DNA from: Minisyncoccota bacterium
Lineage (GTDB): Bacteria; Patescibacteriota; Minisyncoccia; Phycocordibacterales; Phycocordibacteraceae
Direction of reading: 5' to 3'
Assembly: GCA_041657665.1 (NCBI GenBank)
Contig: JBBABN010000001.1
Location: 2,355-66,354 of the forward strand
DNA: 64,000 nucleotides
Under the pieces are notes generated by a model, which searched no databases, was not told the DNA's origin, and was given only the letters and a program-made list of their open reading frames with translations. This document shows, in pieces, positions 401 through 37,199 of the stretch (position 1 is its first letter; the number at the start of each line of letters is the position of its first letter). The position numbers and the translations under genes were made by a program.

Positions 401-1861
401 ATGCAAAAGATATTTTCTTTACTTATTCCTCCTTTTCGGAGGATTATTAAATCAAAAGTCGCAATGAGCGTTATTGGTGTGGCGTTAATAGGTATTGGAA
501 GCTTTTTCTTTTTTCATAAGAGTTCATCCTACCAATTCGTGACCGTACAGCGCGGTTCTGTCGCCGAATCGGTCTCACTTACCGGTAATACGACCCCAGC
601 AAAGAGTGTCGATCTCTCATTCGGCAGCAGCGGCATTATTGCTCATACCTACACAACTCTTGGAGCATCGGTATACGCTGGCCAGATACTGGCAGAACTC
701 AATATAACCGACCTTGCTGCACAATTACGCAATGCTCAAGCGGGACTCACTATTATTGAACAACAAGCATCCGCTTCGAAAGACAATCTTTCGAATGTTA
801 CTGCCCAACAAGATTCTTTAGTCGCGGGCGCGTGGCAGAGCATGCATAGCAATTTCGCCGCGGTACCGACATATACTTTTACAACGAATCCTCCTCCTGT
901 TATTTCTGGATCGTATACCGGAACTGCTGATGGGTTATATAAAATAGAAGTGTATGCATCAAGCGCACTCGGTGGTGCCTCTTTTAATTATTCTGGTCTT
1001 GAATCAGGCACAGAATCAGTAACAACAAATGCTGATGTTCCATTGGGTACCCAAGGACTCTTTGTTCGCTTCCCCGATTCTGTTTCTGCCAGCAGCTATG
1101 TGGGGAGTGTTTGGGTTATTAATGTCCCCAACACTCGCTGGAGTGGCTATGCAAATGCACTGAAAAGCTATCAGACCGCACTCGAAACCCGTCAGAAATC
1201 TATCGCTGACGCTCAGGCAAATGTTGGTGATGGGATTGTTTCTTCAGTAACTGATGCAAAAATCACTCAAGCACGTGCAAATGTCGATAGTGCATTGGCT
1301 AAGATACAGAACGCTCGAATTATCGCGCCTATTAGCGGCATCGTGACACAGTTTGACGCGAAAGTGGGCCAACTTGCTTCCCCGAGTGCACCACTTGCTT
1401 CTCTTATTGGTAATGACGGATTCGAAGTCAACGCAGGAGTATCTGAAACCGACGTCGGGAAATTGACGGTCGGTAATATAGTAACGATGACCCTCGACGC
1501 TTTCCCGAATGAGACCTTCTCAGGAAAAGTATTTTATATTGCACCAGCGCAAACAAACACTCAAGGAGTCATTAGTTATCAGATAAAAATCTCATTCGAG
1601 AAACCTGACCCGCGATTGAAGAGCGGCCTTACTGCAAACATTACTATCCAGACGAAACAACATAATGATGTGTTGATTCTCCCTCAGTATGCCATCTTGC
1701 AGAACGATAATGGTACATTCGTTGAAACACTTTCAGGAAACACTGTAACTACTACTCCTGTTACTCTTGGTATCCAAGATCAAAAAGGAAATGTCGAGAT
1801 TCTCTCTGGAGTTACCGAAGGTGAACAAGTCATTAATATTGGGCTTAAAAAGACCCAGTAG
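401..1861 (+). CDS. Efflux transporter periplasmic adaptor (HlyD/MacA-like membrane fusion protein)
   Basis: 486-aa ORF with an N-terminal TM segment. Contains an MFP-type IIAPISGIV beta-barrel/lipoyl motif. It is immediately followed by an ABC ATPase and an FtsX-type permease. Confidence 0.75.
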   Translation: MQKIFSLLIPPFRRIIKSKVAMSVIGVALIGIGSFFFFHKSSSYQFVTVQRGSVAESVSLTGNTTPAKSVDLSFGSSGIIAHTYTTLGASVYAGQILAELNITDLAAQLRNAQAGLTIIEQQASASKDNLSNVTAQQDSLVAGAWQSMHSNFAAVPTYTFTTNPPPVISGSYTGTADGLYKIEVYASSALGGASFNYSGLESGTESVTTNADVPLGTQGLFVRFPDSVSASSYVGSVWVINVPNTRWSGYANALKSYQTALETRQKSIADAQANVGDGIVSSVTDAKITQARANVDSALAKIQNARIIAPISGIVTQFDAKVGQLASPSAPLASLIGNDGFEVNAGVSETDVGKLTVGNIVTMTLDAFPNETFSGKVFYIAPAQTNTQGVISYQIKISFEKPDPRLKSGLTANITIQTKQHNDVLILPQYAILQNDNGTFVETLSGNTVTTTPVTLGIQDQKGNVEILSGVTEGEQVINIGLKKTQ

Positions 1862-1893
1862 GCGAATCAGCAGATTCGCTCTTGGAGTAACTT

Positions 1894-2613
1894 ATGCTAA
1901 ATCAAATGATCGAGATTCACGATTTACAAAAAGAATATATAGAAGAAGAGACACCAACTCGCGCTCTGCGCGGAGTAACACTCTCGATAAATAAAGGCGA
2001 ATTTGTCTCCATTATGGGACCATCAGGGAGTGGTAAATCCACACTTCTACAAATACTCAGTTTCCTCGACCGACCAACCGGTGGATCCTATACCTTCCAA
2101 GGGAAGCGTATCGACGATATGAATGATCAAGAACTTGCACATGTCCGCAACACAGATATGGGTTTCATATTCCAATCATTTAACCTTCTTTCTCGGTTAA
2201 CCGTATATGACAATGTAGAGATTCCCCTCCTTTATTCTGATATCTTACCTGCGAAACGCCGCACACTTGTTGAAGAAGCAGTCCGATCTGTCGGACTCGC
2301 CGACAAACTACATACTGAAGCAGGAAAACTCTCGGGCGGCCAGAAACAGCGCGTCGCTATAGCACGAGCACTCGTAACCGAGCCGAATGTCATCTTCGCA
2401 GATGAACCGACCGGAAATCTCGACTCGGTGTCTGGCCTTCAGATTATGGAAATACTCGAATCGCTTCATGATCGTGGTCGTACGATCATATTAGTAACGC
2501 ATGAAACACAGACCGCCGAATTTGCTAATCGTATTATTAGAATGAAAGACGGTTCAATAGAGAGTGATACACCAATTACCGCCAATCGTGTCCGTCACGG
2601 ATCACTGAAATAA
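1894..2613 (+). CDS. ABC transporter ATP-binding protein (MacB/LolD-like)
   Basis: Walker [13 protein letters not shown] signature [15 protein letters not shown] and Walker B IFADEPT are all present. Confidence 0.9.
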
Positions 2614-2614
2614 T

Positions 2615-3865
2615 ATGTTGGTACGAGATGCTTTCAAGACCGCCACACGTTCTCTCACACATGGGAAAATGCGTTCAATTCTCACAATGCTCGGTATCGT
2701 TATTGGCATCGCCTCAGTCATCATTCTGATGTCAATTGGCCAATCAGCACAAAACTTAATCCTAGGACAAGTACAAAGTGTTGGATCTAATCTCATCATC
2801 ATTGCCCCCGGTGCACCAAGTGGGAGCGGATTCTCTCCTCCTGCGTCTTCACAGGGCATCGTTATTACCAGTTTGAAACAAGCTGACGCTGATTCTCTCT
2901 CACGCGAGCCGTCCATACACGCAGTGGCATCACTCGTGAGCGGACAAGCAGAAGTAGTGCAAGGAAATACCAACAAAACAGTGAGTTACCAAGGAGTATC
3001 GGCCGATATGTTTTCAGTGCGAAATCTTACTCTTAGTAAAGGATATCCTTTCACTAAGGGAGATGTTGATTCTGCAAATCATGTTGCAATTATAGGACCC
3101 GATCTCGCAACGAAACTCTTCGGGTCCTATGTTGATCCACTCAATAAAACAATACGATTAAAGAATATTTCTTTTCGTATCGTCGGAGTTCTTAGCAAGG
3201 GAGGAACAGGAATGGGTGGCGTTGATCAAGGAAATATTGTCATTGTTCCTATCACTGTTGCGCAGAAACAACTGCTTGGCGTTAATCATTTCAGTACAAT
3301 TCTCGTCGAGGCGGACGCCCAGTACGATATTAATTTCGTAAAATCACGTATCACATTCTCATTACGTCAGAATCACGGTATATCTGATCCGACAAAAGAT
3401 GACTTTAGTATTATGACGCAGGCCGATCTTCTTTCTATTGTAGGAAATATCACCTCAATCCTTACACTCTTCTTAGCAGCAATCGCTTCTATCTCACTCG
3501 TCGTTGGTGGCATTGGAATTATGAACATAATGTTGGTCTCAGTTACTGAACGCACACGAGAGATCGGACTACGCAAAGCGGTTGGTGCGACTGACACTGA
3601 TATCTTGCAACAATTTCTTATCGAGTCGGTTTTACTCACCTTTGCGGGCGGCCTGATAGGCATTATGTTCGGTGCGCTCGTCGTCGGAGCCGTCTATTTC
3701 GGTATCACCATTTTCAACCCAGAGCTCGGCTGGACCTTCGCCTTCCCTCTCTCGGCAGTTATCCTCGGACTCACAGTGTCTGGCATCGCCGGCATTGTCT
3801 TCGGTATTTATCCAGCACGCCAAGCAGGGCGAAAAAATCCTATCGACGCATTGCGTTACGAATAA
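2615..3865 (+). CDS. ABC transporter permease (FtsX/MacB-type)
   Basis: 416 aa with an N-terminal TM, a large periplasmic loop and a C-terminal 3-TM FtsX-like region. Its start abuts the upstream ATPase gene (2613/2615). Confidence 0.8.
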   Translation: MLVRDAFKTATRSLTHGKMRSILTMLGIVIGIASVIILMSIGQSAQNLILGQVQSVGSNLIIIAPGAPSGSGFSPPASSQGIVITSLKQADADSLSREPSIHAVASLVSGQAEVVQGNTNKTVSYQGVSADMFSVRNLTLSKGYPFTKGDVDSANHVAIIGPDLATKLFGSYVDPLNKTIRLKNISFRIVGVLSKGGTGMGGVDQGNIVIVPITVAQKQLLGVNHFSTILVEADAQYDINFVKSRITFSLRQNHGISDPTKDDFSIMTQADLLSIVGNITSILTLFLAAIASISLVVGGIGIMNIMLVSVTERTREIGLRKAVGATDTDILQQFLIESVLLTFAGGLIGIMFGALVVGAVYFGITIFNPELGWTFAFPLSAVILGLTVSGIAGIVFGIYPARQAGRKNPIDALRYE

Positions 3866-3885
3866 ATCCTATATACTGAGGGTAT

Positions 3886-4590
3886 ATGCTACCTTCACCT
3901 GTTTTAGTGTTAATCGCCACACTCAGTATTGTTACTGTCCTGCTTCTCATGAGGCCGCGACGATTCTATATCGTCCGTCACGGCGAAACACTTTCGAATA
4001 AACAACACATTCGCCAAGGTATAGAAGGTGCTCTTTCAGAGAAGGGCCGGCATCAAGCAGATCAAACAGGCCGAGCGCTCGAACACCTTTCTATTTCAAG
4101 CATTATTTCAAGCACATATCCGCGAGCAAAAGAGACAGCTGTAATTATAAATACTCACCTTAAGGTTCCTGTACGGTATTCCCCTCTTCTTGGCGAGAGA
4201 CGTAATCCTTCTGAAATTATCGGGAAGAATAGAGACGAGCCCGAGGTTTCTCACATCATCGATCAGATGGATCTCTCGTATCACGGCGATAATTATCGCT
4301 TCTCTGACGAAGAAAACTTTGCTGACCTGAAGAAGCGAGCACGGAAATGTCTCGCACTTCTCTCGCGTCAAGGAACGCGAAATACTTGTGTCGTAACACA
4401 TCACGTATTCCTTAAAATGTTACTCGCCTATATGCTTCATCGCGAACGATTACACGCCGCTGACTTTGCGAAGCTCTCGTTTTTTAATATCTCTGATAAC
4501 GCAGGTATCTCTATTTGTGAATTCCATCCGTGGAAGATGTTCTCGCCCACCCGCGGCTGGAAGGTCGTGAGTTTCAACGAAACACCCTAA
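3886..4590 (+). CDS. Histidine phosphatase family protein (phosphoglycerate mutase-like)
   Basis: Contains the RHGET catalytic motif (IVRHGETLSN) followed by GxxxxQG, typical of histidine phosphatase superfamily branch 1. Confidence 0.7.
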   Translation: MLPSPVLVLIATLSIVTVLLLMRPRRFYIVRHGETLSNKQHIRQGIEGALSEKGRHQADQTGRALEHLSISSIISSTYPRAKETAVIINTHLKVPVRYSPLLGERRNPSEIIGKNRDEPEVSHIIDQMDLSYHGDNYRFSDEENFADLKKRARKCLALLSRQGTRNTCVVTHHVFLKMLLAYMLHRERLHAADFAKLSFFNISDNAGISICEFHPWKMFSPTRGWKVVSFNETP

Positions 4591-4658
4591 GCATTCGCAT
4601 TCCGACATCCGATGTCCTCGTACATTTGAACATCGGATGTCCATACCTATTGCATTTA

Positions 4659-4708: not shown

Positions 4709-7700
4709 TCAACGGGCTGAGTTAATCGCCGCTCTAGTAAGCGGCCCGAAATATCCCACAGCCGGTGTGATGTTGTTCGCCTTCTGGAATCTGATAAGAG
4801 CGGCCTTGGTCAATGCACCAAATTTGGTTGTTTCATTTCCTGGTGAACCTGGACCGCTCTCCGCAAGAATGAAGCCATGGGTGTTAAGGAACTGTTGGAG
4901 TTTTTGTACATCAGTACCGGTGGTGTTTAGTTTCAGATCGCGAGCAAACCCGGTTTGTGAGCTTGTCGAACCCGTCGAGGGGGTGAAAGATGAAGTGGAA
5001 ACTGTTGAAGTTGTAATCGTTTCTCCCAAGAGAGCGGCTTGTACCTTCGCTATAGTATTGGCATCAACGCCGAAGGAAGCGAGGACAGCGAGAATGGAAG
5101 ATACTTGTACAGAAGAAAGGGGGCTTGCCCCGCGAAGCTCTCCTTCCGAGGAGAGCGAAGTGGGGGTAGTAGTGGCAACAACAGGAGTGACGCGGGGATA
5201 GGTGTGAGAGAACCCACAACCTATAGTGAAGGTCTGGGTGTTGGAGTTGGTACTGTTGTCATTGTTGTCGAGGGCCTTGATGTACCACGAGTGTGTATTA
5301 GAGCAAGAGATAGAGGTTGGAACAGAGACCGAGGTGTCGGAAGTGCTCCCGATAAGGGTGTCATCGATATAGAGCTCATAGGGAGCAAGACCTGATTCAG
5401 TGTCAGAAGAAGCGGTCCAAGAGAGGGTGCCTCCTTTCGAGATGCCGTCATTGTTAGCTGGGGCGGTTAGAGAGAAAGATGCGGGAGCGGTCGTGTCTTT
5501 GGTGAGGGCGAAGGTGTGGGTTGAATACCCGCCGACATAGGTGAAGGTGAGGGAGCCGTCAGCGTCGGACTTGCAGATGCCGTTGGTACATTGGCTGTTG
5601 TTGGTGATGGCGGTGGTAGAGGCAGAGGAGTCGAGGTTGAATGTGTAGTATGTGGAGGGGGTGAGATCGCCGATGGTATAGACGGTGCTGGTGGCGTGGG
5701 TGTTAAAGGCGGCGATACTGGAGGTTGCGGTCCACTGTTTGTTCTTGGTGCCGGATGTGAGCCAAGAATCAATGGTGATGTCCATATATTGCGAAGTGGA
5801 GGCGGTATAGAAGCCGTCCACGGGAGTGACGGAGAAGTTGGCAGCTGGAATGGTGGTGGCAGTGGTGGTGGCGACGAGAGCGCGATACTTGTTGTCGGAA
5901 TAGATGCGGATGGAACCGCTCGTTGGTACTGGAGTTGTTCCCACTGTGTATGGCGGTTGATATTCGTATGCGCCGATGTCTGGGGTGCCGTATATTGAGT
6001 TGCCGGCATAGTCGGTGGTTAATGAGACGTCAGTACCAGCATCAATCGCCGGAGAAAGATACGAGAGTTGAAAATCGGTGACAGCAGTATAATTACCTGT
6101 AGCATTTACAAAAAGAGGATCGGAATTATTACTGTTTAGTTCGTTGGCAGAATGGTAGGTTGCCCATGATGTGTTATTGCTATTATCATCTGTGTTATAA
6201 AATTTACTATCATCAAAAGGTTTGTATAAATTATAGTCAAATGTTGTATAAGATGAATGTCTGTTTAATATCTCTCGCGGCTTACCGTTTCCACCTAAAA
6301 TACCATTCTGTACTGTTAAATTACCGCTAGGTTTGTTGTAATAATTATTACCTCTAATCGATGCAGTTATTACTGTACTTTCTTTAAAAAGATCTCCAAC
6401 AGCATATCCATTTGACCAACCAATAGAATTATAAAAATAATTCGTGCCGTCGGAAACATCTCCAAATCCCTCATTATAATTATGATGAGCTATACAATAA
6501 TAACATTTTATATTTGTCGTAGAATCATGAGGCAAAAAACCCCCGCCATCAGATGTTTCGTTAACTGTTCCATTATAAGAGGCTTCACTATTCAAATATA
6601 TTATATCACTGGCTGATGCCGAAGAAAGGAATCCAATATTATTATTATTATTAGCCATACAATTATTATAAGTTATATTATACGATGTGCCTCTCGCAAC
6701 AAACCCGTTCATAGAATTATGATTCGCCGAAACACTATTATATGTAATGTCGTGGGTCGCTCCCATTAATTCAAAAGCACCATAGGCAGTAGAGTTGCTC
6801 ATACTGCTATCGTCTACCACAATATTTGATGAATCGGTAAAACTAAATCCTGCGCCGGATGATCCTGTGATATTACTAATGGTACCAGTAGCAACATTAT
6901 TTAAAGCAATTCCTGTTAATGTCGAATTAGTTATTGTTAAATTTAAGCCGGTATTTATAGAAATTAATGTCGATGTCGAATTGGTTATTGTTAAATTTGC
7001 AGCATTACTTATAAGTAAGTCGCCAGTATTAATAACTGAATTTTGTAAAGTTATATTATCATTGCCCGTACCAGTAAAACTCATAGCTTTTTTTGTTGGT
7101 CCGCTATTTGTTAGCACCACATTATCAATAACTATATTATTCAAAATACTGTCGGACCATATATTATATCCATAGCCCCCCATATCGCTGGTAATATTAT
7201 TAAATTTAATATTAGAGCCTGCCCCTATGAGTATTCCTATAGTCGAAACTGTTGTCCCTGTATATTGGCAAGAAAATCCTTGAACTATAATATTAGATTT
7301 GCCGTTGGTACTTATTAGATAGCCAGAAGCAACAACAATCGCAGGAGTTTCGTTCGGCACATTCGCATAGGTAATTTCAGTGTCAACGCCGGAACCTCCC
7401 GACGGAAGGATTAAAATTTCTGTGTAATTTCCACCTTGTGAACTGAAAAGAATTTGATCACCATCTCCAAAAGTTGCGAGTTTTACTTGAGCCATGTTCA
7501 AAGAGGTACCGACTGCGTTAGGGCTTGTTGCATTCGCTTTATTAGCCGCGGTCACCGTCCCATCTGCCCGCACATAATACGTCGTTGCACTCGCCTGCCC
7601 TATTCCAATAAACAAAAAACTTCCTGAAAGAATTAGAAAGAATGCAATGAAGCGAACATTTTTGTTGAAAAAATTGGGGCTATTTACTCTCTCTCTCTCT

Positions 7701-7741
7701 CTCTCTCGTTTCGGCTGTGCTAATTTGAGTGTTTTTATCAT
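4709..7741 (-). CDS. Large secreted/surface protein with parallel beta-helix-like repeats and a C-terminal peptidoglycan-binding (PG_binding_1-like) domain
   Basis: 1010 aa with an N-terminal hydrophobic signal-like segment. Has long N/T/S-rich repeats (NITLQNSVINTGDLL...LTITNSTSTL) typical of a pectate-lyase-like beta-helix. The C-terminus LQQFLNTHGF...FGALTKAALIRFQKANNITPAVGYFGPLTRAAIN matches the PG-binding helical bundle motif. Confidence 0.65.
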   Translation of the reverse strand: MIKTLKLAQPKRERERERVNSPNFFNKNVRFIAFFLILSGSFLFIGIGQASATTYYVRADGTVTAANKANATSPNAVGTSLNMAQVKLATFGDGDQILFSSQGGNYTEILILPSGGSGVDTEITYANVPNETPAIVVASGYLISTNGKSNIIVQGFSCQYTGTTVSTIGILIGAGSNIKFNNITSDMGGYGYNIWSDSILNNIVIDNVVLTNSGPTKKAMSFTGTGNDNITLQNSVINTGDLLISNAANLTITNSTSTLISINTGLNLTITNSTLTGIALNNVATGTISNITGSSGAGFSFTDSSNIVVDDSSMSNSTAYGAFELMGATHDITYNSVSANHNSMNGFVARGTSYNITYNNCMANNNNNIGFLSSASASDIIYLNSEASYNGTVNETSDGGGFLPHDSTTNIKCYYCIAHHNYNEGFGDVSDGTNYFYNSIGWSNGYAVGDLFKESTVITASIRGNNYYNKPSGNLTVQNGILGGNGKPREILNRHSSYTTFDYNLYKPFDDSKFYNTDDNSNNTSWATYHSANELNSNNSDPLFVNATGNYTAVTDFQLSYLSPAIDAGTDVSLTTDYAGNSIYGTPDIGAYEYQPPYTVGTTPVPTSGSIRIYSDNKYRALVATTTATTIPAANFSVTPVDGFYTASTSQYMDITIDSWLTSGTKNKQWTATSSIAAFNTHATSTVYTIGDLTPSTYYTFNLDSSASTTAITNNSQCTNGICKSDADGSLTFTYVGGYSTHTFALTKDTTAPASFSLTAPANNDGISKGGTLSWTASSDTESGLAPYELYIDDTLIGSTSDTSVSVPTSISCSNTHSWYIKALDNNDNSTNSNTQTFTIGCGFSHTYPRVTPVVATTTPTSLSSEGELRGASPLSSVQVSSILAVLASFGVDANTIAKVQAALLGETITTSTVSTSSFTPSTGSTSSQTGFARDLKLNTTGTDVQKLQQFLNTHGFILAESGPGSPGNETTKFGALTKAALIRFQKANNITPAVGYFGPLTRAAINSAR
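7687..7707. repeat. (CT)10.5 dinucleotide microsatellite inside the 5' coding end of the surface-protein gene
   Basis: ctctctctctctctctctctc is visible at 7687..7707. On the coding (minus) strand it is (GA)n encoding RERERER at residues 12-18 of the ORF that begins at 7741. Confidence 0.9.
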
Positions 7742-7843
7742 ACATATTTGATGCTCCTATAGTACAGGATAGCACGTGTTACAAGAAGCTGGATGTGGAC
7801 AACCTTTCTGTTGTGCATACTGCATACTGGGTATGCACATGAT

Positions 7844-9775
7844 TTAAATAATTTCTTTATCCTGTGAAGCTTCAGCGAAGCAGGACGCGCTATTGGTCTC
7901 ATCAAATACCATGAGAGATGAATCGATATCAGCGAGGAATGACGATGGCTCAGCGAGAGAATCACTCCCGTAGATCTTTCGAATGCGCGCGAGGGTTAAG
8001 AAAAGGCGTGATTTTGCGCGCGTCATCGCCACATAAAAGAGTCGTCGCTCTTCTTCATCATCTCTCTTGGTATCATTCCCCATAGCACTGTGCGGAAAGA
8101 GCCCTTCTTCCATACCACTCACGAATACCGTGTCGAATTCAAGACCTTTTTATGCATGGACCGTCATCAGAGTCACGCCCTTCTTATCATTCTGATCGAG
8201 TTCGTCCTGATCACTCGCGAGAGCGGCATCCGCGAGAAATGCCGAAATGCCTTCTTTCCCAATAGCCGCATCATGCCGCGCAGCGACCGAAGCGAGTTCT
8301 TCTATATTTTCAAATCGTTCCCGATCTTCATCATTCCCCTCTTCGACTAATGCGCGACGTAACCCGCTTTTTTCTATAACAAGCTTCACGAATTCAGATG
8401 GTGCGAGCGTTTCTGCGCCCTGTGCAAGCTCTGCTATAACACCTTCAAAAGTTTCAACCTTCGCGATTTCGCCCGCACGAAGCTCGCTGCGCTTCCCTGC
8501 TGCGAGCTTACCAAGTGTTACCTTACCGATACCGCGCGACGGCGAAGCTGCTGCACGAAGTTTGTCGACTTCTCTCGAAGGATCGAGCGCGAGTCGCATC
8601 CACGCGAGCGCATCTTTCACTTCTTTTCTCGCGAAGAAATGTGTCCCGAGCAATTTATACGGCACACCAGCTTTCAATAATCCTTCTTCGAGCGCTCGCG
8701 ACTGGAAGTTAGTACGAAAAAGTAGTGCGATTTCTTCTGGCTTCGCGCCATTCTTCATTAATTCTCGGATCTTCAGCGCGATCCAACGTGCCTCATCTTC
8801 AGCATTAATCGCGAAGTGCACGACAATTGGCTCACCCGCAGGATGTTCGGTCGTCGAATATCGTTCTTTACGGTTTTTATTTTTCTCGATGACGGCGTTT
8901 GCCGCATCAACTAGATTTTTTGTCGAACGATAATTACGTTCGAGAATAATCGTCTGTGCTGCAGAATATTTTTTCTCAAAATTTAAAATGTTTTCCATCT
9001 TTGCGCCGCGCCATCCGTAAATCGCTTGATCACCATCACCAACAACAAAAAGATTGTTGTGTTTTTCAGAGAGAATGCGAGCGAGTCGCTCCTGTAATCC
9101 ATTTGTATCTTGATATTCATCGATACTAATAGAGCTCCAACGAGCTTGTGCAAGCGCACGGATATCAGCATGTTCTTCGAGTAGCTGTACCGGAAGCGAA
9201 ATAAGATCATCGAAGTCGAGCGACTTCTCTTCTTTCAGAGTTTTCTCATAGCGAAGCCATACTTCTGCGGTAATACGAGAACCGAAACTTCCACGACCCT
9301 GTTTTTCATAGAATTCACTCGCGCGCATTCCCTCACCTTTCGCACGCGAGATGCGGCCCATAATTGCACGTGGAGAAAATTCCTTCGATTCCACATCAAG
9401 CGCTTTCAATGCGGTAGCAATTACTCTTTCTGAATCGGCACGATCATAGATACTAAAGAATTTCGAGACGCCTATCTCACTTCCATAACTCTCCAGAATC
9501 TCGCGCCCAAGCCCGTGGAAAGTAGCAATAAAAGGAAGGGTCCCATCATCCTCGAGCATAGTGCGGACTCGTGCACGCATCTCGCGTGCCGCTTTATTAG
9601 TGAAGGTGACCGCGAGAATCTGATTCGCCGGCACCCCAGAGCGAATCAGATGATAAATTCGCGTCGTGAGCACGCGCGTTTTCCCGCTTCCAGCACCCGC
9701 AAGAACCAAGACCGGACCATCGATAGCGAGTACTGCTCGTTTCTGAGCTTCATTCAATCCTTCAAGGTATTTCAC
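7844..9775 (-). pseudogene. uvrD: UvrD/PcrA-family DNA helicase interrupted by an in-frame TAA (fragments 8150..9775 and 7844..8149)
   Basis: The N-terminal fragment has Walker A AGAGSGKTRVLT. The reading frame continues in the same frame across a TAA at 8150-8152 as ...[29 protein letters not shown]..., which is the conserved UvrD motif V/VI region (consensus ...TLHSAKGLEF...). Confidence 0.8.
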
Positions 9776-9884
9776 TTACGGACTATAGCGCAAAATCGTT
9801 CTCCACAGGTCTTTTTTGGGCTCATTGACTCCTCAACTGTCTCAGATATACTAGCCCTATCGGCAGTACGAAAGTATTCAAGAA

Positions 9885-11006
9885 ATGGCTTATATACGTG
9901 AGTATGTAAGCTATTTTTGTATTCGAAAGACCCACCGCATTCCTCGTTTTCCTATTAAATTCAACCCACATCTTTTCATAGTAGGTTCTGCGATAATCGC
10001 GTCCGCCCTTATGCTCGTACCGAGCCATGCGGATGCTTTTTGGCCTTTTTCTTCTAATGCAGATGCTGCAACGAATACTATTATTCCAAGAGCTTCGACT
10101 CCAGTACTTATTGCCGCTCTGAATAGCAATCCAAACATTACCGCCTCTGTAGAGCTGGCTACTTCTGGTGGATCAGCTCTTGTTTCTCACAGTGGTCCTT
10201 CTGGTACCTCAGCCAGTATCGCGAACATACCGCCGCCTGACCAAATATCAGTCTATGTAGTCCGCCCAGGAGATACCCTCTCAGATATTGCTGACATGTT
10301 TAATGTTTCGGTAAACACTATTATTTGGGCAAACAATCTTTCTAGCGTTCGAGACATACATCAGGGCGACACGCTCATCATTCTGCCAGTTTCAGGTACT
10401 GAACGCATCATAGTTAAAGGCGACACCCTAAAATCACTCGCAAAGAAATACAATGCTGACGCGAATGAAATCGCACAATACAACGGTCTCGATCCGCTCG
10501 AACCGCTTACTATAGGATCCACCATTATCATTCCTGGCGGTGAAATCGGCACACCAGCTCCAAGCGCGTCGCCTTCAAAACCTTCTCGCACAACATCTAC
10601 TTCTAGTAACGGTTCACTGCAGACAGGTTATTACAGAAATCCTGTACCGGGAGGAGTTATCTCTCAAGGCATTCACGGAAAGAATGCTGTGGATATAGCT
10701 GCAGCACGCGGCACACCAATCCACGCAGCCGCTGGCGGAACGGTTATCATCTCGCGTAACAATGGTGGGTGGAATGGCGGATACGGCAACTATGTCGTTA
10801 TAACTCACAGTAACGGCTCCCAGACACTCTATGCTCACATGACCAATGCGATTGTTTCAACAGGACAGTCGGTTTCCTCAGGACAAATCATCGGCTATGT
10901 CGGCTCGACCGGACAATCGACCGGCTCACATCTCCACTTCGAAGTTCGTAGTGCATCCAACCCTCTCCGTAATTGTTCAGTTGGCAGAGTGTGCTCTCCT
11001 AAATAA
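9885..11006 (+). CDS. LysM-domain M23 family metallopeptidase (peptidoglycan hydrolase)
   Basis: Two LysM repeats (YVVRPGDTLSDIADMF..., IIVKGDTLKSLAKKYN...) and a C-terminal M23 motif GSTGQSTGSHLHFEVR. N-terminal hydrophobic signal. The start codon is uncertain. Confidence 0.85.
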   Translation: MAYIREYVSYFCIRKTHRIPRFPIKFNPHLFIVGSAIIASALMLVPSHADAFWPFSSNADAATNTIIPRASTPVLIAALNSNPNITASVELATSGGSALVSHSGPSGTSASIANIPPPDQISVYVVRPGDTLSDIADMFNVSVNTIIWANNLSSVRDIHQGDTLIILPVSGTERIIVKGDTLKSLAKKYNADANEIAQYNGLDPLEPLTIGSTIIIPGGEIGTPAPSASPSKPSRTTSTSSNGSLQTGYYRNPVPGGVISQGIHGKNAVDIAAARGTPIHAAAGGTVIISRNNGGWNGGYGNYVVITHSNGSQTLYAHMTNAIVSTGQSVSSGQIIGYVGSTGQSTGSHLHFEVRSASNPLRNCSVGRVCSPK

Positions 11007-11009
11007 TTA

Positions 11010-11032
11010 AAAACGCCCATCGGGCGTTTTTA
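11010..11032. terminator. Bidirectional rho-independent terminator hairpin (AAAAACGCCCATCGGGCGTTTTT)
   Basis: Perfect GC-rich stem flanked by A-run and T-run, between convergent genes at 11006 and 11057. Confidence 0.8.
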
Positions 11033-11056
11033 ATTTAATATAAAAATGCAAATGTT

Positions 11057-11314
11057 CTATTTCTTTAGTGCTTGCTGTAGTTCTTGTTGAATTTTCCTGA
11101 TCTCCTCATCGTTCTGTCGTTTCCTTAACTCAAGTTCCTCAATCGATTTTCTTATGACTTCTGCCTCGCTCTCCAATTTCTGAAGTTCGCTTTTCTTTTT
11201 TGTTACTTCATCCTCTTTCCTCTTCAGATCTTGTTTTTTCGTTTGCAACTCTCGTTCTTCGTTTTGCATCTCGCGCTTCAAAGTTTCAAGAGCTTGTGTC
11301 GATGTATTTTCCAT
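11057..11314 (-). CDS. Small coiled-coil protein (highly charged, K/E-rich), function unknown
   Basis: 85-aa ORF with heptad-like E/K/L periodicity, ending at the bidirectional terminator. No recognisable catalytic motif. Confidence 0.4.
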   Translation of the reverse strand: MENTSTQALETLKREMQNEERELQTKKQDLKRKEDEVTKKKSELQKLESEAEVIRKSIEELELRKRQNDEEIRKIQQELQQALKK

Positions 11315-11350
11315 ATTCTGTCTGTAAACTAGTACTGCGAGAGTATAGCA

Positions 11351-12943
11351 TTATTCAAACCCAAACAATCCGCGGGGACGGTACTGAAGTGCTTCGTGCA
11401 CGAAAGCGGGAGTGACCGAGCTGGCACCAGCGAGGTCGGCGATAGTGCGTGCGACACGCATCGTGCGGTGGTAGCTCCGCGGCGAGAGATGCAGGCGCGC
11501 GGCAGAAAGGGTGAGTGTTTCTTTCGCGGCTTCGGTAAAGCCACTTTTTTCATCCAATTCTTTTCCACTAAGCGCGGCATTTGTAGCACCCTTCTTCCCT
11601 GTGCGTTTCTCGGCACTCGTACGTGCTGCGACCACACGCTTACGCACCAGTTCTGACGATTCTCCTGTTGAAAGTTTCGCGAGCGTATCATGCGGGACGA
11701 GCGGCACTTCTATCCAGAGATCAAGACGGTCGACGATAGGACGCGAAATACGGCGGGCCTGCTTCACCGCGGCGCGCTGTGCGACACGAGAATCATCAGA
11801 GAGCGTATCGGCCGGATTCATCGCAGCGACAATCATACAGTCAGCTGGGAAAGTAACGGTCGCGCGCGCTCGAGAAACAGTAACGATGCGATCTTCGAGC
11901 GGTTGTCGAAGAGCTTCGAGCGTTCGTGAATCAAATTCGGGAAATTCGTCTAAGAAAAGAACACCTTTATGCGCGAGAGTTACTTCACCCGCCTTCGGGA
12001 ACGTGCCGCCGCCGACAATCGCGACATGAGAGATCGAATGATGTGGCGCACGAAATGGTGGCCAGTAGACAGCATCGCCATCTGAAAGAAGCCCTGCGGT
12101 CGAATGTATCGCCGTCACTTCGAGCATATCGTCGTCAGAGAGCGATGGAAGAATTCCTGCGAGCGCTCTGGCGAGCATCGTCTTCCCCGTTCCAGGAGGT
12201 CCATAAAAAACGATATTATGTCGGCCAGCAGCAGCGATCTCAAGGGCGCGTTTCGCACTCTCCTGCCCTTTTACTTCAGCAAGATCGATAGCAGGTGGCG
12301 GAATTGGTATATGGCGATCACGCACAAGACGTGGAAGTATTTTCTCCCCATTCAAATGAAGGAGAAGTTCTGTGAGCGATGCGGGAGCATAGACCGCAAT
12401 ACCTTCGGCAAGAAGTGCCTCACGCGCATTCCCTGGTGGGACGAAAATCGTTTTAATACCATGCCGTTTCGCAACCAACACTTGTGGAAGAACCCCGCGC
12501 ACAGCCCGAACCGTCCCATCGAGAGCAAGTTCACCAATAAAAAGCATTTTCTCCTCGAGAGAAGGAAGATCCCCAGCAGCTATAAGATACGCAATCGCAA
12601 GCGAAAGATCATAGTGCGATCCTTCTTTCTTCAAATCTGCAGGCGAGAGCGAGAGAACGATACGTTTATTTTGTTGTTTCGGCGGCTTATAGCCAGAATG
12701 CCGTATCGCAGCACTTATCCTGTCGCGCGCTTCTTCGACCGCTTTATCAGCAAGACCAACAACTGAGAAATTATGTAGTCCGCGCGTCAGATCGGCCTCG
12801 ACCACCACTATCTCAGCACCAGATCCAACTGGTTGAGCCGCAAGAGTCTTCGCGTAGCCATGCTTAGGAAGCAGAGCTTTAGCGGCGTTTCCCTTGGGAA
12901 GAGAGGTTTTGGCTGTATTTCCCTTGGGCAATGCGCCTGGCAT
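11351..12943 (-). CDS. comM: YifB/ComM family Mg-chelatase-like AAA+ ATPase (competence protein ComM)
   Basis: N-terminal Lon-like domain ([32 protein letters not shown]), Walker [14 protein letters not shown] and a C-terminal Mg-chelatase region. I chose the ATG at 12943 as start, 4 nt after the dksA-like stop. The ORF-track extension to 13051 overlaps dksA and is rejected. Confidence 0.8.
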
Positions 12944-15204: not shown

Positions 15205-15334
15205 ATAAATAAATTACGTATGAAAACAAAATAATAAAATGTAGCTCCCGCATCGGGACTCCGACGGGAGTGCTACTTCTTCATACTACCACTTCCTTTC
15301 TTACACCTTATCCCTTGCACCTTAAACCTCCTTT

Positions 15335-21440: not shown

Positions 21441-21482
21441 GTTTATACGCTAGCGCAAAAATGGTATTCTCACCACAGGAAC

Positions 21483-21553
21483 GCGGGATTAGTTTAATGG
21501 TAGAACTACAGATTTCCAATCTGTTAGTGGGAGTTCGATTCTCCCATCCCGCA
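21483..21553 (+). tRNA. tRNA-Gly (anticodon TCC)
   Basis: Acceptor GCGGGAT/ATCCCGC, anticodon stem ACAGA/TCTGT with loop TTTCCAA (TCC), T arm GGGAG-TTCGATT-CTCCC. Confidence 0.85.
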
Positions 21554-21556
21554 CAC

Positions 21557-21585
21557 TTGACAGAATTAGAGTAATCTGCTATCAT
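21557..21585 (+). promoter_or_regulatory. Sigma70-like promoter (TTGACA, 17-nt spacer, TATCAT) upstream of ORF 21655
   Basis: TTGACA at 21557-21562 and TATCAT at 21580-21585 are visible. A strong RBS TAAGGAGG lies 7 nt upstream of the ATG at 21655. Confidence 0.55.
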
Positions 21586-21654
21586 AGATATAGAAGCTTG
21601 GGGAATGACCTCGAGCGAGTACAAAAACCCGCATGATGCCTAAGGAGGCGCGCG

Positions 21655-21969
21655 ATGGGTGAAAGAAAGCTGTCTCACGAGCTGATGGATTTTGGTTTCT
21701 TCTCAGCACTCGGAACATCAGAGCATTCTGGATGTTCGAAAGAAGAAACTCACGTGAAGCGCGGACGACCGTATACCCATGACTCAAACAATGGAGTCGT
21801 AGTGGTGTACGACGAAGAGGGACGCCCGTGGATTATCTGCAATCCTCTCGGATTCAATAATATTCTTCAGAGTTATCCTATGGAAAGACGCGGAGCTTAT
21901 GTTCCGCACTCCAACGATGGGGGATATTTTGTCCATGAGGTTATGGACAAAATGATGATCAAACCCTAA
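21655..21969 (+). CDS. Hypothetical 104-aa protein
   Basis: Good promoter and RBS upstream, and an intrinsic terminator (21987..22016) downstream. No recognisable motif. Confidence 0.5.
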   Translation: MGERKLSHELMDFGFFSALGTSEHSGCSKEETHVKRGRPYTHDSNNGVVVVYDEEGRPWIICNPLGFNNILQSYPMERRGAYVPHSNDGGYFVHEVMDKMMIKP

Positions 21970-22046
21970 CCATCCAATGTTTCGCCGACGCGACCCTGAA
22001 ATATGGGTCGCGTTTTATTTTATCTGAAAGAGAGTACGCTTACTCT

Positions 22047-23258
22047 ATGGAGCCGCTCGCTGCACAAATACGACCGAAGACGCTTCAAGAAGTTGTCGGA
22101 CAAGAACATTTGGTAGGCGAAGGGAAGCCCTTGCGCGTCGCAGTAGAAAAGAAACATAAGTTCTCTTTTGTTCTCTGGGGGCCGCCCGGGACAGGGAAGA
22201 CGACTATTGCGCGCATTTATGCGCGCGCGCTTGATGCAGAACTATTTGAACTCTCGGCGGTATCGGCAGGGAAGGACGATATTAGAAAGTTGTTAGGCGC
22301 AAGGGATAAGGTGCAAGGAAATTCGCTTAAACCTTACACCTTGAACCTTAAACCTAAAGTATTGTTTCTCGACGAGATTCATCGTTTTAATAAAAGCCAG
22401 CAGGATTTTCTCTTGCCCTATGTCGAGAGCGGAGAATTAACCCTCATCGGCGCAACGACGGAGAATCCTTCATTTGAAATTATCGCGCCCCTTCTCTCGC
22501 GCTGTCGCGTATTCGTCTTAGAGCCTCTTTCTGAAGAAGCCCTCCGCGCGATTGTTAAAAGAACAAAACTGAAAGTGAAGAAAGACGCTTTTGAATGGCT
22601 TTTGGGTTATGCGGGCGGGGACGCACGCAGGGCACTTGGGATGATGGAAGGTGCACAAAGTTTATATGGGGAGGTTACTATCGAATCCCTTACTAAAGCG
22701 CTCGAATCGCCCCATCTGCACTACGACAAGAAAGGCGAAGAACACTACGACACTATCAGTGCGTTTATTAAAAGCATGCGCGCTTCGCAGGCAGATGCGG
22801 CGATTTATTATTTGGCGCGAATGGTCGAAGCGGGAGAAGATCCGCTCTTTATCGCACGACGAATGGTTATCTTCGCCTCAGAAGATGTGGGACTCGCCCA
22901 GCCGACAGCGCTCGTAGTCGCGAATGCCGTCTTTCGTGCCTGCGAGACCATCGGCTATCCTGAATGTGCGATTAATCTCGCACACGGAGTCGCGTATCTC
23001 GCACAAGCGAAGAAAGATCGTTCTACTTATGATGCGCTTCGTGGCGCACAAGCTGACGTGCATGCCTACGGCAACTTGCCGGTACCGAAGAAAATACGAA
23101 ATGCTGTCACAAAACTTATGAAAGACCTCGACTATGGAAAGGGGTACGAGAAATACCCCTCGACTCCCTTCGACGATGCTCAAGGTAAACCGCTCGGGGC
23201 AAGTGAACCAGAATCATACTTGCCGGACAAATTGAAGAAAAAGAAGTACTTAAAATAA
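22047..23258 (+). CDS. rarA: Replication-associated recombination protein A (AAA+ ATPase RarA/MgsA)
   Basis: Walker [10 protein letters not shown], Walker B LFLDEIHRFNKSQQD, sensor and C-terminal MgsA helical domain (AIYYLARMVEAGEDPLFIARRM). Confidence 0.9.
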   Translation: MEPLAAQIRPKTLQEVVGQEHLVGEGKPLRVAVEKKHKFSFVLWGPPGTGKTTIARIYARALDAELFELSAVSAGKDDIRKLLGARDKVQGNSLKPYTLNLKPKVLFLDEIHRFNKSQQDFLLPYVESGELTLIGATTENPSFEIIAPLLSRCRVFVLEPLSEEALRAIVKRTKLKVKKDAFEWLLGYAGGDARRALGMMEGAQSLYGEVTIESLTKALESPHLHYDKKGEEHYDTISAFIKSMRASQADAAIYYLARMVEAGEDPLFIARRMVIFASEDVGLAQPTALVVANAVFRACETIGYPECAINLAHGVAYLAQAKKDRSTYDALRGAQADVHAYGNLPVPKKIRNAVTKLMKDLDYGKGYEKYPSTPFDDAQGKPLGASEPESYLPDKLKKKKYLK

Positions 23259-23300
23259 AAACAAAGAGCGCCCTCGTTGCGAGGGCGCTCTTTGTTTTTA
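23258..23300. terminator. Bidirectional terminator hairpin between rarA and hup (AAACAAAGAGCGCCCTCG..CGAGGGCGCTCTTTGTTTTT)
   Basis: 17-bp perfect inverted repeat flanked by A- and T-runs, between convergent genes. Confidence 0.85.
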
Positions 23301-23332
23301 CTTAAACCTTACACCTTACCGCTTACACCTAT

Positions 23333-23605
23333 CTACTTCACTGCGTCCTTGAGCGCCTTTGCGGCGCGGAACTTCGCAGTGCGAGATGCTGCGATGTGGA
23401 TGGTCTCGCCTGTGCGAGGATTGCGTCCTTCGCGCGCTGGGCGCGCCTTCGTCGCGAAGATACCGAGGCCTGCTACTGATACTTCATCGCCGGATTTAAG
23501 ACCGGAGACAATCGAATCAATAACCGTCTCAACAGCACGCTCGGCATCTGCCTTTGTTGATCCGAGAACGCCGTGCACTTTGTCGACAATATCTGCTTTA
23601 TTCAT
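23333..23605 (-). CDS. hup: HU family DNA-binding protein
   Basis: 90 aa: MNKADIVDKV...RNPRTGETIHIAASRTAKFRAAKALKDAV is a canonical HU/IHF fold sequence. Confidence 0.95.
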   Translation of the reverse strand: MNKADIVDKVHGVLGSTKADAERAVETVIDSIVSGLKSGDEVSVAGLGIFATKARPAREGRNPRTGETIHIAASRTAKFRAAKALKDAVK

Positions 23606-23717
23606 GAGTATCTGCTAATTGCTAATCCCGCAGCCAATAGGGGCGGGTATGGGGGAAGTATAGGAAATGAGCCCTATTGTGCAAGAGGGCTCTCCGCGAG
23701 ACGTGGATAGTGGAGAA

Positions 23718-25247
23718 TTAGCGGGCAAACTCCACGACACGGTTCTCGCGGATGATGTTCACCTTAATCTCGCCTGGATATTTGAGTTCTTCCTGAATGC
23801 GCTTGGCGATATCACGCGCGAGCTTATGCATCGCGAGGTCAGAAACCTTGCCGGGGTTCACGAAGATGCGTATCTCTCGCCCTGCGGCGATGGCATACAC
23901 CTTTTCAACTCCTTCGAATGTCGCTGCGAGGCGTTCTAGGTCGCCGAGACGTTCAAGATACCGGTCGACCGTGTCACGACGCGCACCCGGGCGACCGCTT
24001 GATATCGCATCTGCCACCTGCACAATAACCGCTTCTGGTGTTTCGTAGGGATATTCGTCATGGTGTGACTGCATAGCTTGGATAATGCGCGGATCAACAC
24101 TAAATTTTTCGAGAATTCTGCGGCCGATCTCGACATGAGTGCCCTGAACTTCATGATCAACTGCCTTGCCGATATCATGCAGAAGCGCTGCGGTACGTGC
24201 GACCGTAGAATCTACATCAAGCTCAGTCGCGAGCATCCCAGCGATATACGCTGTCTCGATAGAATGCTGAAGCATATTCTGTCCAAAGCTAGCACGGAAG
24301 TGGAGACGGCCCAGAAGTTCTGTCAATTTCGGGTCGAGCCCGACAATACCGACTTCATACGCAGCTGCTTCACCCTTCTGCTTCACAATATCAGCAACTT
24401 CAGCACGTGTTTTTTCTACGGTCTCTTCTATTTTGACTGGTTGAATGCGACCATCGGCAATAAGCTTCTCGAGAGAGGTCTTCGCGACATACCGACGGAG
24501 TGGATCAAAGGAAGAGAGTGTTATCTTGTCCGGCACATCGTCAATAAGCACATCTACGCCAGTTGCACGTTCAAAAGCTTTAATATTGCGCCCTTCTTTG
24601 CCAATAATTTTTCCTTTTATTTCTTCTGAAGGAAGTGTGACCGAGAGGGACATCACTTCAGCATTCACCGCATTCCCGAGGCGATGAATCGTATTGGTGA
24701 GAATAGAACGCGCTTTATCTTCAAGTCGTTCACGGCCATTCGCCGCAAGCTTCTGTAAACGCAGAAGAATTGATTCTTCGTATGAGTTTTCAATTTCAGA
24801 AAAGAGTTCTTTCCGCGCATCTTCTTCTGAGAGATGGGCGACCTTCGCCAGTTCTTTTGAGCGTTCTGCCGTAAGCTTTTCTGCTTCGCTCTTCGCGCGA
24901 AGAGCATCCTGTTCGCGAGAGCGTACCTCATCTTCCTTGTCATCAAGGTCTCGTTGACGAGAATCAAGAAATTCTTCACGCGAGATGATATGTGCTTCAC
25001 GTGCAGAGAGTTTTCCTTCGCGCTCTTCGATTGGTACGAGACGTTCGGTCTCGAAGACCTCTCCTCGGAATTCGGCTTCAGCGATAATCTTCGCCGCCTG
25101 CTCCTTCGCTTGGAGCAGTTTTTGTTTGATATCGAGCTCAATCGAACCCTTCTGAGCGAGACCAATAAGCACACGCAGCACATAGCCCAGCACAATACCG
25201 CCGGTTCCAGACAGTGCAAGTAGAATCAATATAATTTTGAGTGACAT
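23718..25247 (-). CDS. rny: Ribonuclease Y
   Basis: N-terminal TM helix, coiled-coil, KH domain (GKIIGKEGRNIKAFERATGV) and HD domain (LLHDIGK...), the RNase Y architecture. 509 aa. Confidence 0.9.
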   Translation of the reverse strand: MSLKIILILLALSGTGGIVLGYVLRVLIGLAQKGSIELDIKQKLLQAKEQAAKIIAEAEFRGEVFETERLVPIEEREGKLSAREAHIISREEFLDSRQRDLDDKEDEVRSREQDALRAKSEAEKLTAERSKELAKVAHLSEEDARKELFSEIENSYEESILLRLQKLAANGRERLEDKARSILTNTIHRLGNAVNAEVMSLSVTLPSEEIKGKIIGKEGRNIKAFERATGVDVLIDDVPDKITLSSFDPLRRYVAKTSLEKLIADGRIQPVKIEETVEKTRAEVADIVKQKGEAAAYEVGIVGLDPKLTELLGRLHFRASFGQNMLQHSIETAYIAGMLATELDVDSTVARTAALLHDIGKAVDHEVQGTHVEIGRRILEKFSVDPRIIQAMQSHHDEYPYETPEAVIVQVADAISSGRPGARRDTVDRYLERLGDLERLAATFEGVEKVYAIAAGREIRIFVNPGKVSDLAMHKLARDIAKRIQEELKYPGEIKVNIIRENRVVEFAR

Positions 25248-25381
25248 ACGCCCATTTTGCCCCGAAGGGGCCCCGTTGGGGTTATCCTCCTTTCTGGGGA
25301 TTATTTGAAGTTAAGTAAAGGGGGAGACGGTACGGCTTTCAGGTCAGTCAATCAGTGAGACAGTATAGAAGGACTTTACCA

Positions 25382-25415
25382 CAAAATCCCGCGCGGCACA
25401 CCGCGCGGGATTTTG
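25382..25415. terminator. Hairpin terminator after clpP (CCCGCGCGGCACACCGCGCGGG flanked by AAAAT/ATTTTG)
   Basis: GC-rich 9-bp stem with flanking A/T runs, 12 nt beyond the clpP stop. Confidence 0.75.
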
Positions 25416-25426
25416 TGTGCTCTTTG

Positions 25427-26026
25427 TTACGCGTACACTTTATCAACCAACCCGTACTTTTTCGCTTCTTCAGCCGTCATAAAGAAGTCGCGCTCGACAT
25501 CCTTCTCAATCTTCGCGAGTGGCTGGCCCGTATTCTTCGAGAGAATCTTATTCAACACCGCACGAAGCTTCAGAATCTGCTTCGCGGTAATCTCGATATC
25601 GGTCGCTTGACCCTCAGCACCGCCACTTGGCTGATGGATCATTATCTCAGCATTCGGGAGCGCGAAGCGTTTACCTTTTTCTCCTGCCGAGAGGAGAATC
25701 GCCGCGCCTGAAGCTGCCATACCAACGCACACCGTCGAAACATTCGGTTTTACATGATTCATCGTGTCTACCATCGCAAGTGTCGAAGTAACCGAGCCAC
25801 CTGGAGAGTTGATGTAGAGTGAAATATCTTTTTTAGGGTCTTCAGCTTCGAGGAAGAGAAGCTGGGCGATCACGAGATTTGCCGTATCGTCATCAATATG
25901 TCCGCCAAGAAAAATAACACGCTCCTTCAAGAGGCGCGAGTAGATGTCATAGGCGCGCTCGCCGAATTGGCTCTTCTCGATAACCATCGGGACGAGCATT
26001 GAGGCACGAGGTTGTGAATGTGTCAT
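25427..26026 (-). CDS. clpP: ATP-dependent Clp protease proteolytic subunit
   Basis: [46 protein letters not shown]...MAASGAA...MIHQP is a canonical ClpP sequence including the Ser-His catalytic motifs. Confidence 0.95.
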
Positions 26027-26035
26027 AGATAAAAA

Positions 26036-26221
26036 TTATTGAGCAGTTGATTCTACAGGAATTTGATTCTGAGAGAGTCTCTTACCCCACGAATAGAACG
26101 CGCCGACGACAATCATCATCACAATAACAACAATCGAAATAACCACGCCCCAGGACTGTTGTGCGCGCGAAGGCATTGGCGGCACTGGCTCACTAGGCGG
26201 GAGGAGGGGTTCGTTCTCCAT
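26036..26221 (-). CDS. Possible small membrane protein (MENEPLLPP...VVISIVVIVMMIVVGAFY...)
   Basis: 61-aa ORF with one TM, between clpP and ppa. The ORF-track N-terminal extension overlaps ppa and is rejected. Confidence 0.3.
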   Translation of the reverse strand: MENEPLLPPSEPVPPMPSRAQQSWGVVISIVVIVMMIVVGAFYSWGKRLSQNQIPVESTAQ

Positions 26222-26222
26222 A

Positions 26223-26738
26223 TTATTTGTCGAGATACATCTTCTTCGCGCGCTCAAATGCGGCAAAGGCCGCCTCGCGTCCTTCGAATTCGCCAACGAC
26301 CACTTCCTTCTTCTGAATTTGTTTATACGTCGCGAAGAAGTGGGCAATTTCTTTCAGTACATGTTGATTTGCATCAGTAATATCCTTCACATCCGCATAG
26401 CGCGGATCGCCTGAAGCAACCGCAATAACTTTTTCATCGGCCTCGCCTCCATCAACCATATGCAAGATACCAATCGGACGCGCCGGAGCGAGGATGCCTG
26501 ACACGAGCGGATGCGTCGTCAGAAGGACGACATCGAGCGCATCGTGGTCATCCCAGAGTGTCTGCGGCACGAATCCGTAGTCGAAAGGGTAGTCCTGCGC
26601 AGAATGCATCACGCGATCGAGCTTGATAATACCGGTCTTCTTATCAATCTCGTATTTATTGTGCGAACCTTTCGGAATCTCAATAATGACATTCATCTCT
26701 TCTTTGGTGCCCGGATCAATATCGTGTAGCAAATTCAT
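26223..26738 (-). CDS. ppa: Inorganic pyrophosphatase (family I)
   Basis: IIEIPKGSHNKYEIDKKTGIIKLDRV...DGDPLDVL-like motifs. The ATG at 26738 is chosen as start; the longer ORF-track start at 26801 overlaps nusA. Confidence 0.9.
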   Translation of the reverse strand: MNLLHDIDPGTKEEMNVIIEIPKGSHNKYEIDKKTGIIKLDRVMHSAQDYPFDYGFVPQTLWDDHDALDVVLLTTHPLVSGILAPARPIGILHMVDGGEADEKVIAVASGDPRYADVKDITDANQHVLKEIAHFFATYKQIQKKEVVVGEFEGREAAFAAFERAKKMYLDK

Positions 26739-31104: not shown

Positions 31105-31154
31105 GTGTGAAAAGCGTGCATCACCAAGGGCTCTTCACGCTATACTATTTTTAT

Positions 31155-32903: not shown

Positions 32904-32904
32904 T

Positions 32905-34119: not shown

Positions 34120-34120
34120 T

Positions 34121-34507
34121 ATGAAATCTCCTAATGGATTCTCGCTCATCGAAATTATTATCTCGATATTTATTATTGGTTCTATGCTTATTCTGCTCCA
34201 GGCGATTATACATAGTGATATACTCGTAAAAAACTCAAAAAATCAAGGCGTTGCGCTTGCTATCGCCCGTAACGAACTTGAGAGCTTGCGGGCAGGTGGT
34301 TATACCATTCTTCCCCAAAGCGGTTCATTCTCTAACGACCTCTTGAACACACTCCCGGTGGGGGCAACTGCAACATTCACCATAAGCACCTATAACGAAA
34401 AGACAAAACAAGTTTCGGTAAACGTGATATGGATGGAACCAGGTTATACAGCGTCAAGTACTGTCTCACTCTCAACACTTATTACTGATTCTGGCGGGCT
34501 TCCATGA
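34121..34507 (+). CDS. Prepilin-type N-terminal cleavage/methylation domain protein (pilin)
   Basis: MKSPNG/FSLIEIIISIFIIG is a class III signal peptide (G|FxLIE) followed by a hydrophobic helix. Confidence 0.85.
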   Translation: MKSPNGFSLIEIIISIFIIGSMLILLQAIIHSDILVKNSKNQGVALAIARNELESLRAGGYTILPQSGSFSNDLLNTLPVGATATFTISTYNEKTKQVSVNVIWMEPGYTASSTVSLSTLITDSGGLP

Positions 34508-37198: not shown

Positions 37199-37199
37199 T

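Follow-up and report, generated by a model that had tools for sequence, protein, structure and literature searches.

An in-frame TAA in the pcrA/uvrD gene of a Minisyncoccota bacterium: a one-base difference confined to one assembly, at the edge of a homopolymer

How does a stop codon come to lie inside an otherwise intact gene for a core repair helicase? The question is raised by an in-frame TAA in the pcrA/uvrD gene of a Minisyncoccota bacterium, located on a 64,000-nucleotide stretch of DNA (GenBank assembly GCA_041657665.1, contig JBBABN010000001.1) which was analysed as a whole and is termed here the window; all coordinates refer to it. An earlier reading of this DNA, made from the sequence alone (the sequence-only reading), had named three possible causes, i.e., a nonsense mutation, a sequencing or assembly error, or translational readthrough. 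The present analysis leaves the first two in place and finds readthrough to be without support.

The helicase gene and its internal stop

The PcrA/UvrD gene occupies positions 7844..9775 of the minus strand and comprises 643 codons, counting the internal stop, followed by a natural TAA terminator at 7844-7846. Translation of 7841..9820(-) gives one continuous frame, in which a GTG start at 9775 is followed by 541 sense codons, the TAA of codon 542 (8150-8152, minus strand), and another 101 sense codons. The upstream piece (8153..9775, minus strand) contains the Walker A motif and motifs II, III and IV, and the downstream piece (7847..8149, minus strand) contains the remainder of motif V together with motif VI. 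The lengths had previously been given as 541 and about 102 aa; the former is exact, and the latter should read 101 codons.

The joined 643-aa protein, with X at the position of the stop, was used as the query in a Pfam search. It matched the UvrD-helicase domain (PF00580) with an E-value of 1.5e-80 and the UvrD_C domain (PF13361) with an E-value of 1.8e-68; both scores are well past the curated cut-offs, as in members of the UvrD/Rep/PcrA group of SF1A helicases, and the UvrD_C match (residues 276-596) spans the stop unbroken. The proposal that an in-frame TAA splits a UvrD/PcrA helicase is thus borne out by the minus-strand translation, by the position of the stop and by domain matches that run across it.

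The helicase motifs I to VI occur in order: GAGSGKT (Walker A, 9677-9697, minus strand), IDEYQDT, GDGDQAIYGWRGA, NYRST, TVHA*KGLEF and YVAMTRA (8015-8035, minus strand). The stop breaks the fifth of these, motif V, which was delimited to 8135..8170 (minus strand) by alignment to the LMTLHAAKGLEF segment of PcrA. The coding strand at this point reads ACG GTC CAT GCA TAA AAA GGT CTT GAA TTC. The sequence-only reading had placed the stop in the motif V/VI region, which holds for motif V; motif VI lies wholly within the downstream piece. It had also taken TLHSAKGLEF as the local consensus, and the form found in this clade is actually TVHAAKGLEF. Without the KGLEF of motif V and without the arginine of motif VI, a residue that contacts ATP in the PcrA structures, the 541-aa product would be predicted to be an inactive helicase.

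Comparison with helicases of known structure places the stop more precisely. The PcrA of G. stearothermophilus (1PJR / 3PJR) aligns with the protein from end to end (query residues 4-623, E-value of 3.6e-144), with motifs I-VI in the same order, and in 1PJR the residue opposite the stop is the second Ala of LMTLHAAKGLEF. The window copy differs from this enzyme in having a TAA at that position and in its shorter C-terminal tail (643 versus 724 aa). The same domains and motifs are present in D. radiodurans UvrD (4C2U), E. coli UvrD (2IS1) and Rep (1UAA), with E-values of 1e-118, 5e-114 and 3e-93, respectively. The sequence does not distinguish between the roles of UvrD and PcrA, either of which may be taken by this CPR helicase. 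The large ORFs of the window that were tested included no further member of the UvrD family.

Codon 542 in relatives and in a second assembly

The relatives of the helicase are annotated as Kaiserbacteria, Paceibacterota or Minisyncoccota. Comparison with orthologues, one of the checks that had been proposed for this site, gave a uniform answer. Among 119 aligned sequences with 76-92% identity, the column of codon 542 contains Ala in all 118 close relatives and Ser in a single sequence (P0001, described below). The codon used by the relatives is GCN in 118 of 118 cases, and it is GCA in the two nearest ones (93% and 91% identical in amino acids, ~84% in nucleotides). Across 158 homologous loci, Ala accounts for 132 of the residues at this site, Ser for 14 and Val for 12; none of the loci has a stop. 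Since Ser occurs in 14 of the 158 loci, it appears to be acceptable at this position, and an intact allele with Ser542 should be functional. Protein-guided scans of metagenome_contigs and genome_contigs found no sister strain; the relatives detected there showed at most 80% identity and were used for codon statistics. One relative (P0008; 1018 aa, 84% identical) is a PcrA/UvrD protein that carries a 367-aa intein (PF14890) directly behind the GDGDQ of motif III, following residue 250 in the numbering of P0001, a site different from that of the stop.

A search of a collection of 5.8 billion proteins returned two entries at 100% identity. The first (P0010) is a 541-aa “PcrA”, identical to the upstream piece, on a single JGI contig of 73,891 bp, and represents the window's own truncated call; the contig also belongs to an NCBI MAG labelled “Candidatus Paceibacterota bacterium”, with locus tags WC887_. 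The second (P0001) is an intact 643-aa protein with Ser at residue 542, encoded by a 4,444-bp Logan contig (L001) assembled from SRA run SRR18595299. L001 corresponds to positions 7726-12169 of the window, with one mismatch and no indel. The mismatch is base 8151, which on the plus strand is T in the window and G in L001; the coding strand thus has A versus C, and codon 542 reads TAA versus TCA (Ser). Accordingly, the gene codes for a single uninterrupted polypeptide in the sister assembly and is interrupted in the window. The sequence-only reading had stated that a sense codon in the sequence data would make this an ordinary intact uvrD; such a codon is indeed present, at the level of an independent assembly and not of individual reads.

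Three additional Logan contigs of the same run were reached via neighbouring proteins. Two of these, L163 (3,785 bp; window 835-4619) and L164 (3,031 bp; window 37661-40691), show no differences from the window, and the third, L167 (4,872 bp; window 21495-26366), has one mismatch, at base 24435. Here the window has G and Logan T, a synonymous difference (GTC/GTA) in the codon for Val271 of RNase Y (gene at 23718..25247, minus strand). The four contigs together allow 16,132 bp to be compared, with two substitutions and no indels; this near-identity indicates that both assemblies sample the same near-clonal population. SRR18595299 may derive from the same sample as the window or from a sister sample; a literature search on this run found nothing.

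The TAA allele was encountered in one assembly only, the clusters of P0001 and P0010 having one member each, and the strain was seen nowhere else in the collections. For 10 more proteins, the cluster members included the JGI/NCBI contig, and they yielded no variant Logan copies and no new differences. A 35-mer around the stop, with N at the variable base, had no matches in either metagenome_contigs or genome_contigs, from which it follows that the window's own contig is absent from both. The stop is peculiar to this assembly, since the disabling change is absent from the 118 close relatives, from the 158 loci and from the sister assembly. With GCA in the nearest relatives and TCA in the Logan contig, the inferred history of codon 542 is GCA to TCA to TAA.

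The downstream 101 codons are base for base those of the intact allele; every family-invariant residue is kept and no decay is evident. Over the 4444 bp compared with L001, no extra stops, frameshifts or relaxed constraint were found in uvrD. If the gene is a pseudogene, this state is therefore compatible solely with a very recent event.

Possible origins of the TAA

The two differences between the assemblies share their sequence context. On the plus strand, they read CCTTTT[G/T]ATGC at 8151 and ATTTT[G/T]ACTG at 24435, such that in both cases the variable G/T directly follows TTTT and precedes A. The T allele extends the run to five, and is carried by the window at 8151 and by Logan at 24435. 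At both sites the substituted base is that of the preceding homopolymer, as would be the case in an artefact of this type. In the compared DNA, only 87 of 7,807 G/C sites (1.1%) are placed such that G>T or C>A would extend a run, and the chance that two of two differences would extend runs is ~1e-4 or less, even if that substitution class alone is allowed. Two documented processes copy the base of a run to its neighbour. One is the Illumina “post-homopolymer” error, in which phasing causes the base after a homopolymer to be called as the homopolymer base, and which accounts for 0.7-5.3% of all errors (Stoler & Nekrutenko 2021, PMC8002175). The other, transient-misalignment (dislocation) mutagenesis, is an error made during replication, by which the adjacent position takes on the base of the run (Kunkel & Soni 1988, as cited in PMC4770217); substitutions beside repeats have also been tabulated in mismatch-repair-deficient yeast (PMC3755907). 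The TTTT[G/T] footprint fits both processes.

Our preferred explanation, to which we assign slightly better than an even chance and which is thus slightly favoured over a real nonsense allele, is a one-base consensus miscall. The true codon 542 would be TCA (Ser); the plus-strand TTTT-G would have been read as TTTT-T at the homopolymer boundary, through phasing, and the wrong base would then have entered the contig, probably at a point of low coverage or weak allele support. Nothing biological would then occur at the site, and the cell would make a normal 643-aa helicase. In this connection, we infer that at both sites the allele with the longer run is the erroneous one and that the platform was Illumina. 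As part of the same explanation, the gene is probably the ordinary single-copy pcrA/uvrD of an uncultured, groundwater-type CPR bacterium of the Paceibacterota/Kaiserbacteria.

A miscall is consistent with the Logan contig, which equals the window throughout 7726..12169 except at base 8151 and encodes the intact Ser542 protein, and with the error-type context of both discrepancies, one in each assembly, of which the instance at 24435 is selectively neutral. The footprint, TTTT-G versus TTTT-T at both sites, corresponds exactly to the error mode of PMC8002175; that paper, however, deals with per-read errors, whereas here the wrong base would have won the consensus. To do so it would have to prevail in several reads, and short-read consensus errors are rare at ordinary coverage; moreover, post-homopolymer errors after four T are normally infrequent and hit one read direction only, and the 73.9-kb contig suggests a coverage that was reasonable and not very low. 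Assemblers also normally retain the better-covered allele, so that derivation of both assemblies from the same reads would imply near-equal support for the two alleles, a situation that arises more easily from real polymorphism. This brings forward the main rival, held to be somewhat less than an even bet, according to which the TAA is a real and very recent nonsense allele (TCA to TAA, a coding C-to-A change), which segregates, or has become fixed in one subclone, within a near-clonal population where the intact TCA is also present. The lineage would have passed from the ancestral GCA (Ala) through TCA (Ser) to TAA, transient-misalignment mutagenesis would account for the boundary context, and in the cells concerned pcrA/uvrD would be a newly formed pseudogene. 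Short reads usually give a reliable consensus, and microdiversity among strains is frequent; of the two differing sites, each assembly has the extended run at one, as would be expected with coexisting sub-strains and arbitrary picks of alleles, and the short Logan contigs (3-5 kb) could stem from strain bubbles. Furthermore, the Ser codon TCA, unique among the 119 aligned sequences, is one step from TAA, which the ancestral GCA is not, and substitutions that copy the run base beside homopolymers are a known biological outcome (Kunkel & Soni 1988, as cited in PMC4770217; PMC3755907). Such real substitutions at run edges leave the same footprint, but they are not known to dominate natural SNP spectra, and two of two G:C>T:A changes that lengthen runs are very unlikely (~1e-4) under the general mutation spectrum; the pattern is at least equally compatible with a sequencing artefact. 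The gene that holds the stop is fully conserved, with no further decay in its 3' piece, and the allele is known from one assembly, its P0010 cluster being one member on one contig. In addition, the known roles of PcrA/UvrD imply that loss of the only such helicase seen should be selected against, which disfavours a common nonsense allele. It is very improbable, in our estimation, that a real TAA, arisen at a mutational hot spot at the homopolymer boundary, coexists with TCA and deprives a subpopulation of the only PcrA/UvrD seen in the window; if true, this would give a CPR bacterium a mutator or hyper-recombination state that is heritable and possibly reversible.

The remaining explanations accept the TAA as real and retain a working helicase. 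A decoded stop, through programmed readthrough, a suppressor tRNA or local reassignment, would produce the full-length protein, and would suit a frame that is open and fully conserved past the stop. With A at +4, the termination context is not of the strongest kind, judging from the context effects in E. coli. Nevertheless, TAA is the usual terminator in the window: among the stops of 49 confident genes there are 33 TAA, 10 TGA and 6 TAG, and the same TAA-A context terminates seven of these genes. The earlier view that systematic recoding is unlikely, TAA being an ordinary stop here, is upheld by these counts. At codon 542, stops are likewise absent from the homologous loci and close relatives, and the sister assembly has a sense codon. 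None of the four tRNAs of the window (Arg-TCG, Gly-GCC, Pro-TGG and Gly-TCC) is a suppressor, and no downstream RNA structure was detected, the 126 nt at and after the stop having a minimum free energy of -24.4 kcal/mol versus a mean of -28.1 for shuffled sequences (z = +1.13). Stop reassignment is known in CPR bacteria, i.e., UGA as Gly (code 25) in Gracilibacteria and Absconditabacteria, and the present case resembles such reassignment or readthrough superficially in showing an in-frame stop inside a conserved CPR gene; here, however, the codon concerned is the main terminator, and the stop is single, non-conserved and replaced by a sense codon in the sister assembly. Recoding or programmed readthrough is thus unsupported and largely refuted, and we consider it very improbable that the TAA is decoded. 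Still less credible is a functional split, in which an active two-chain helicase would be assembled from the 541-aa piece and a C-terminal piece translated from its own start. A 92-aa ORF with a GTG start (7844..8122) does follow the stop, and its missing Shine-Dalgarno sequence is not decisive, as such sites are rarely used in this genome. The first possible restarts, however, GTG at 8122 and ATG at 8113, lie 9-12 codons past the stop, and KGLEFDTVF would be missing from both pieces; no relative is split, and the gene differs by one base from the intact allele and shows no adaptive change, for instance a newly gained start codon.

Several further candidates were examined and rejected. RNA-polymerase or ribosomal slippage on the A5 tract would keep the TAA in frame if an A were added or removed, and after slippage into another frame the downstream frame could not be regained. 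Mutagenesis of the DGR type is set aside because the changes lie at G and C and not at A. Splits elsewhere in the window were surveyed by listing all pairs of same-frame open segments of at least 60 codons parted by one stop, and those with long upstream genes were inspected; no other split genes were found in the window. The same-frame ORF pairs at 11351, 20367, 23256, 36416 and 46714 represent either neighbouring genes or the regular ends of genes, and the genes for ComM/YifB, RarA and a serine protease have normal ends, followed by non-coding or unrelated sequence.

Surroundings of the gene and meaning of the finding

On its 3' side, uvrD is adjoined by a repeat-rich gene for a 1010-aa secreted protein with a PG_binding domain (4709..7741, minus strand). 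In the two nearest relatives (loci L165 and L166), uvrD is followed instead by ksgA (RrnaAD), versus the secreted protein in the window (4709-7843), and the final ~20 residues of the helicase also differ between the window and these loci. Synteny therefore breaks exactly at the 3' end of uvrD. Near the N-terminus of the secreted protein, a perfect (CT)10.5 repeat (7687-7707), read as (AG)n on the coding strand, encodes “RERERER”. This tract is a candidate slipped-strand on/off tract; L001 stops 19 bp before it. The same gene contains a 54-bp tandem repeat (6891-7013; 2.3 copies, 73% matches), which encodes repeated beta-helix-like units of the “LTITNST” type.

At 30331-38282, 42039-43550, 46723-48549, 53981-56546 and 62022-63962, the genes are of a kind typical of CPR bacteria, and include those for two PilB-like T2SSE ATPases, PilC, PilX and ComEC, as well as a TraG/HerA-like P-loop protein. 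The additional presence of dnaA and dnaN indicates that the window adjoins the replication origin. Most of its genes have no Shine-Dalgarno match, and in several of them a TATAAT-like box (GCGCTATAGT, GCGTATAAAC and GCGCTATACT) is located only a few bases before the start codon, e.g., at 9776-9797, 21441-21462 and 49230-49251; this arrangement suggests leaderless or very short-leader mRNAs. Arrays of the heptamer CTTAYAC, with 3-4 copies on the plus strand, occur at 15300-15329, 22326-22355, 23301-23330 and 38697-38724. The corresponding 21-mer pattern has seven matches in the window versus none in shuffled sequences. One array lies in frame in the rarA ORF, one just past the rarA terminator hairpin, and one directly upstream of the recJ start.

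The observation of an in-frame stop is correct and has an ordinary character: one base of an otherwise intact pcrA/uvrD, at the edge of a homopolymer, differs in this assembly alone. There is no sign of an unusual genetic code, of readthrough or of a new gene architecture. The value of the case lies in curation, as the 541-aa “PcrA” of IMG most likely misdescribes an intact gene, and a pseudogene call in the NCBI MAG, which is probable, would do likewise. It also serves as a warning that post-homopolymer substitutions can reach the consensus of a MAG and mimic nonsense mutations. Should the allele prove real, a bacterium with a reduced genome would have newly acquired a loss-of-function variant of a core repair helicase, a matter of modest population-genetic interest. 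The biological weight of the stop is small, in that the organism has, or very recently had, a normal PcrA/UvrD helicase.
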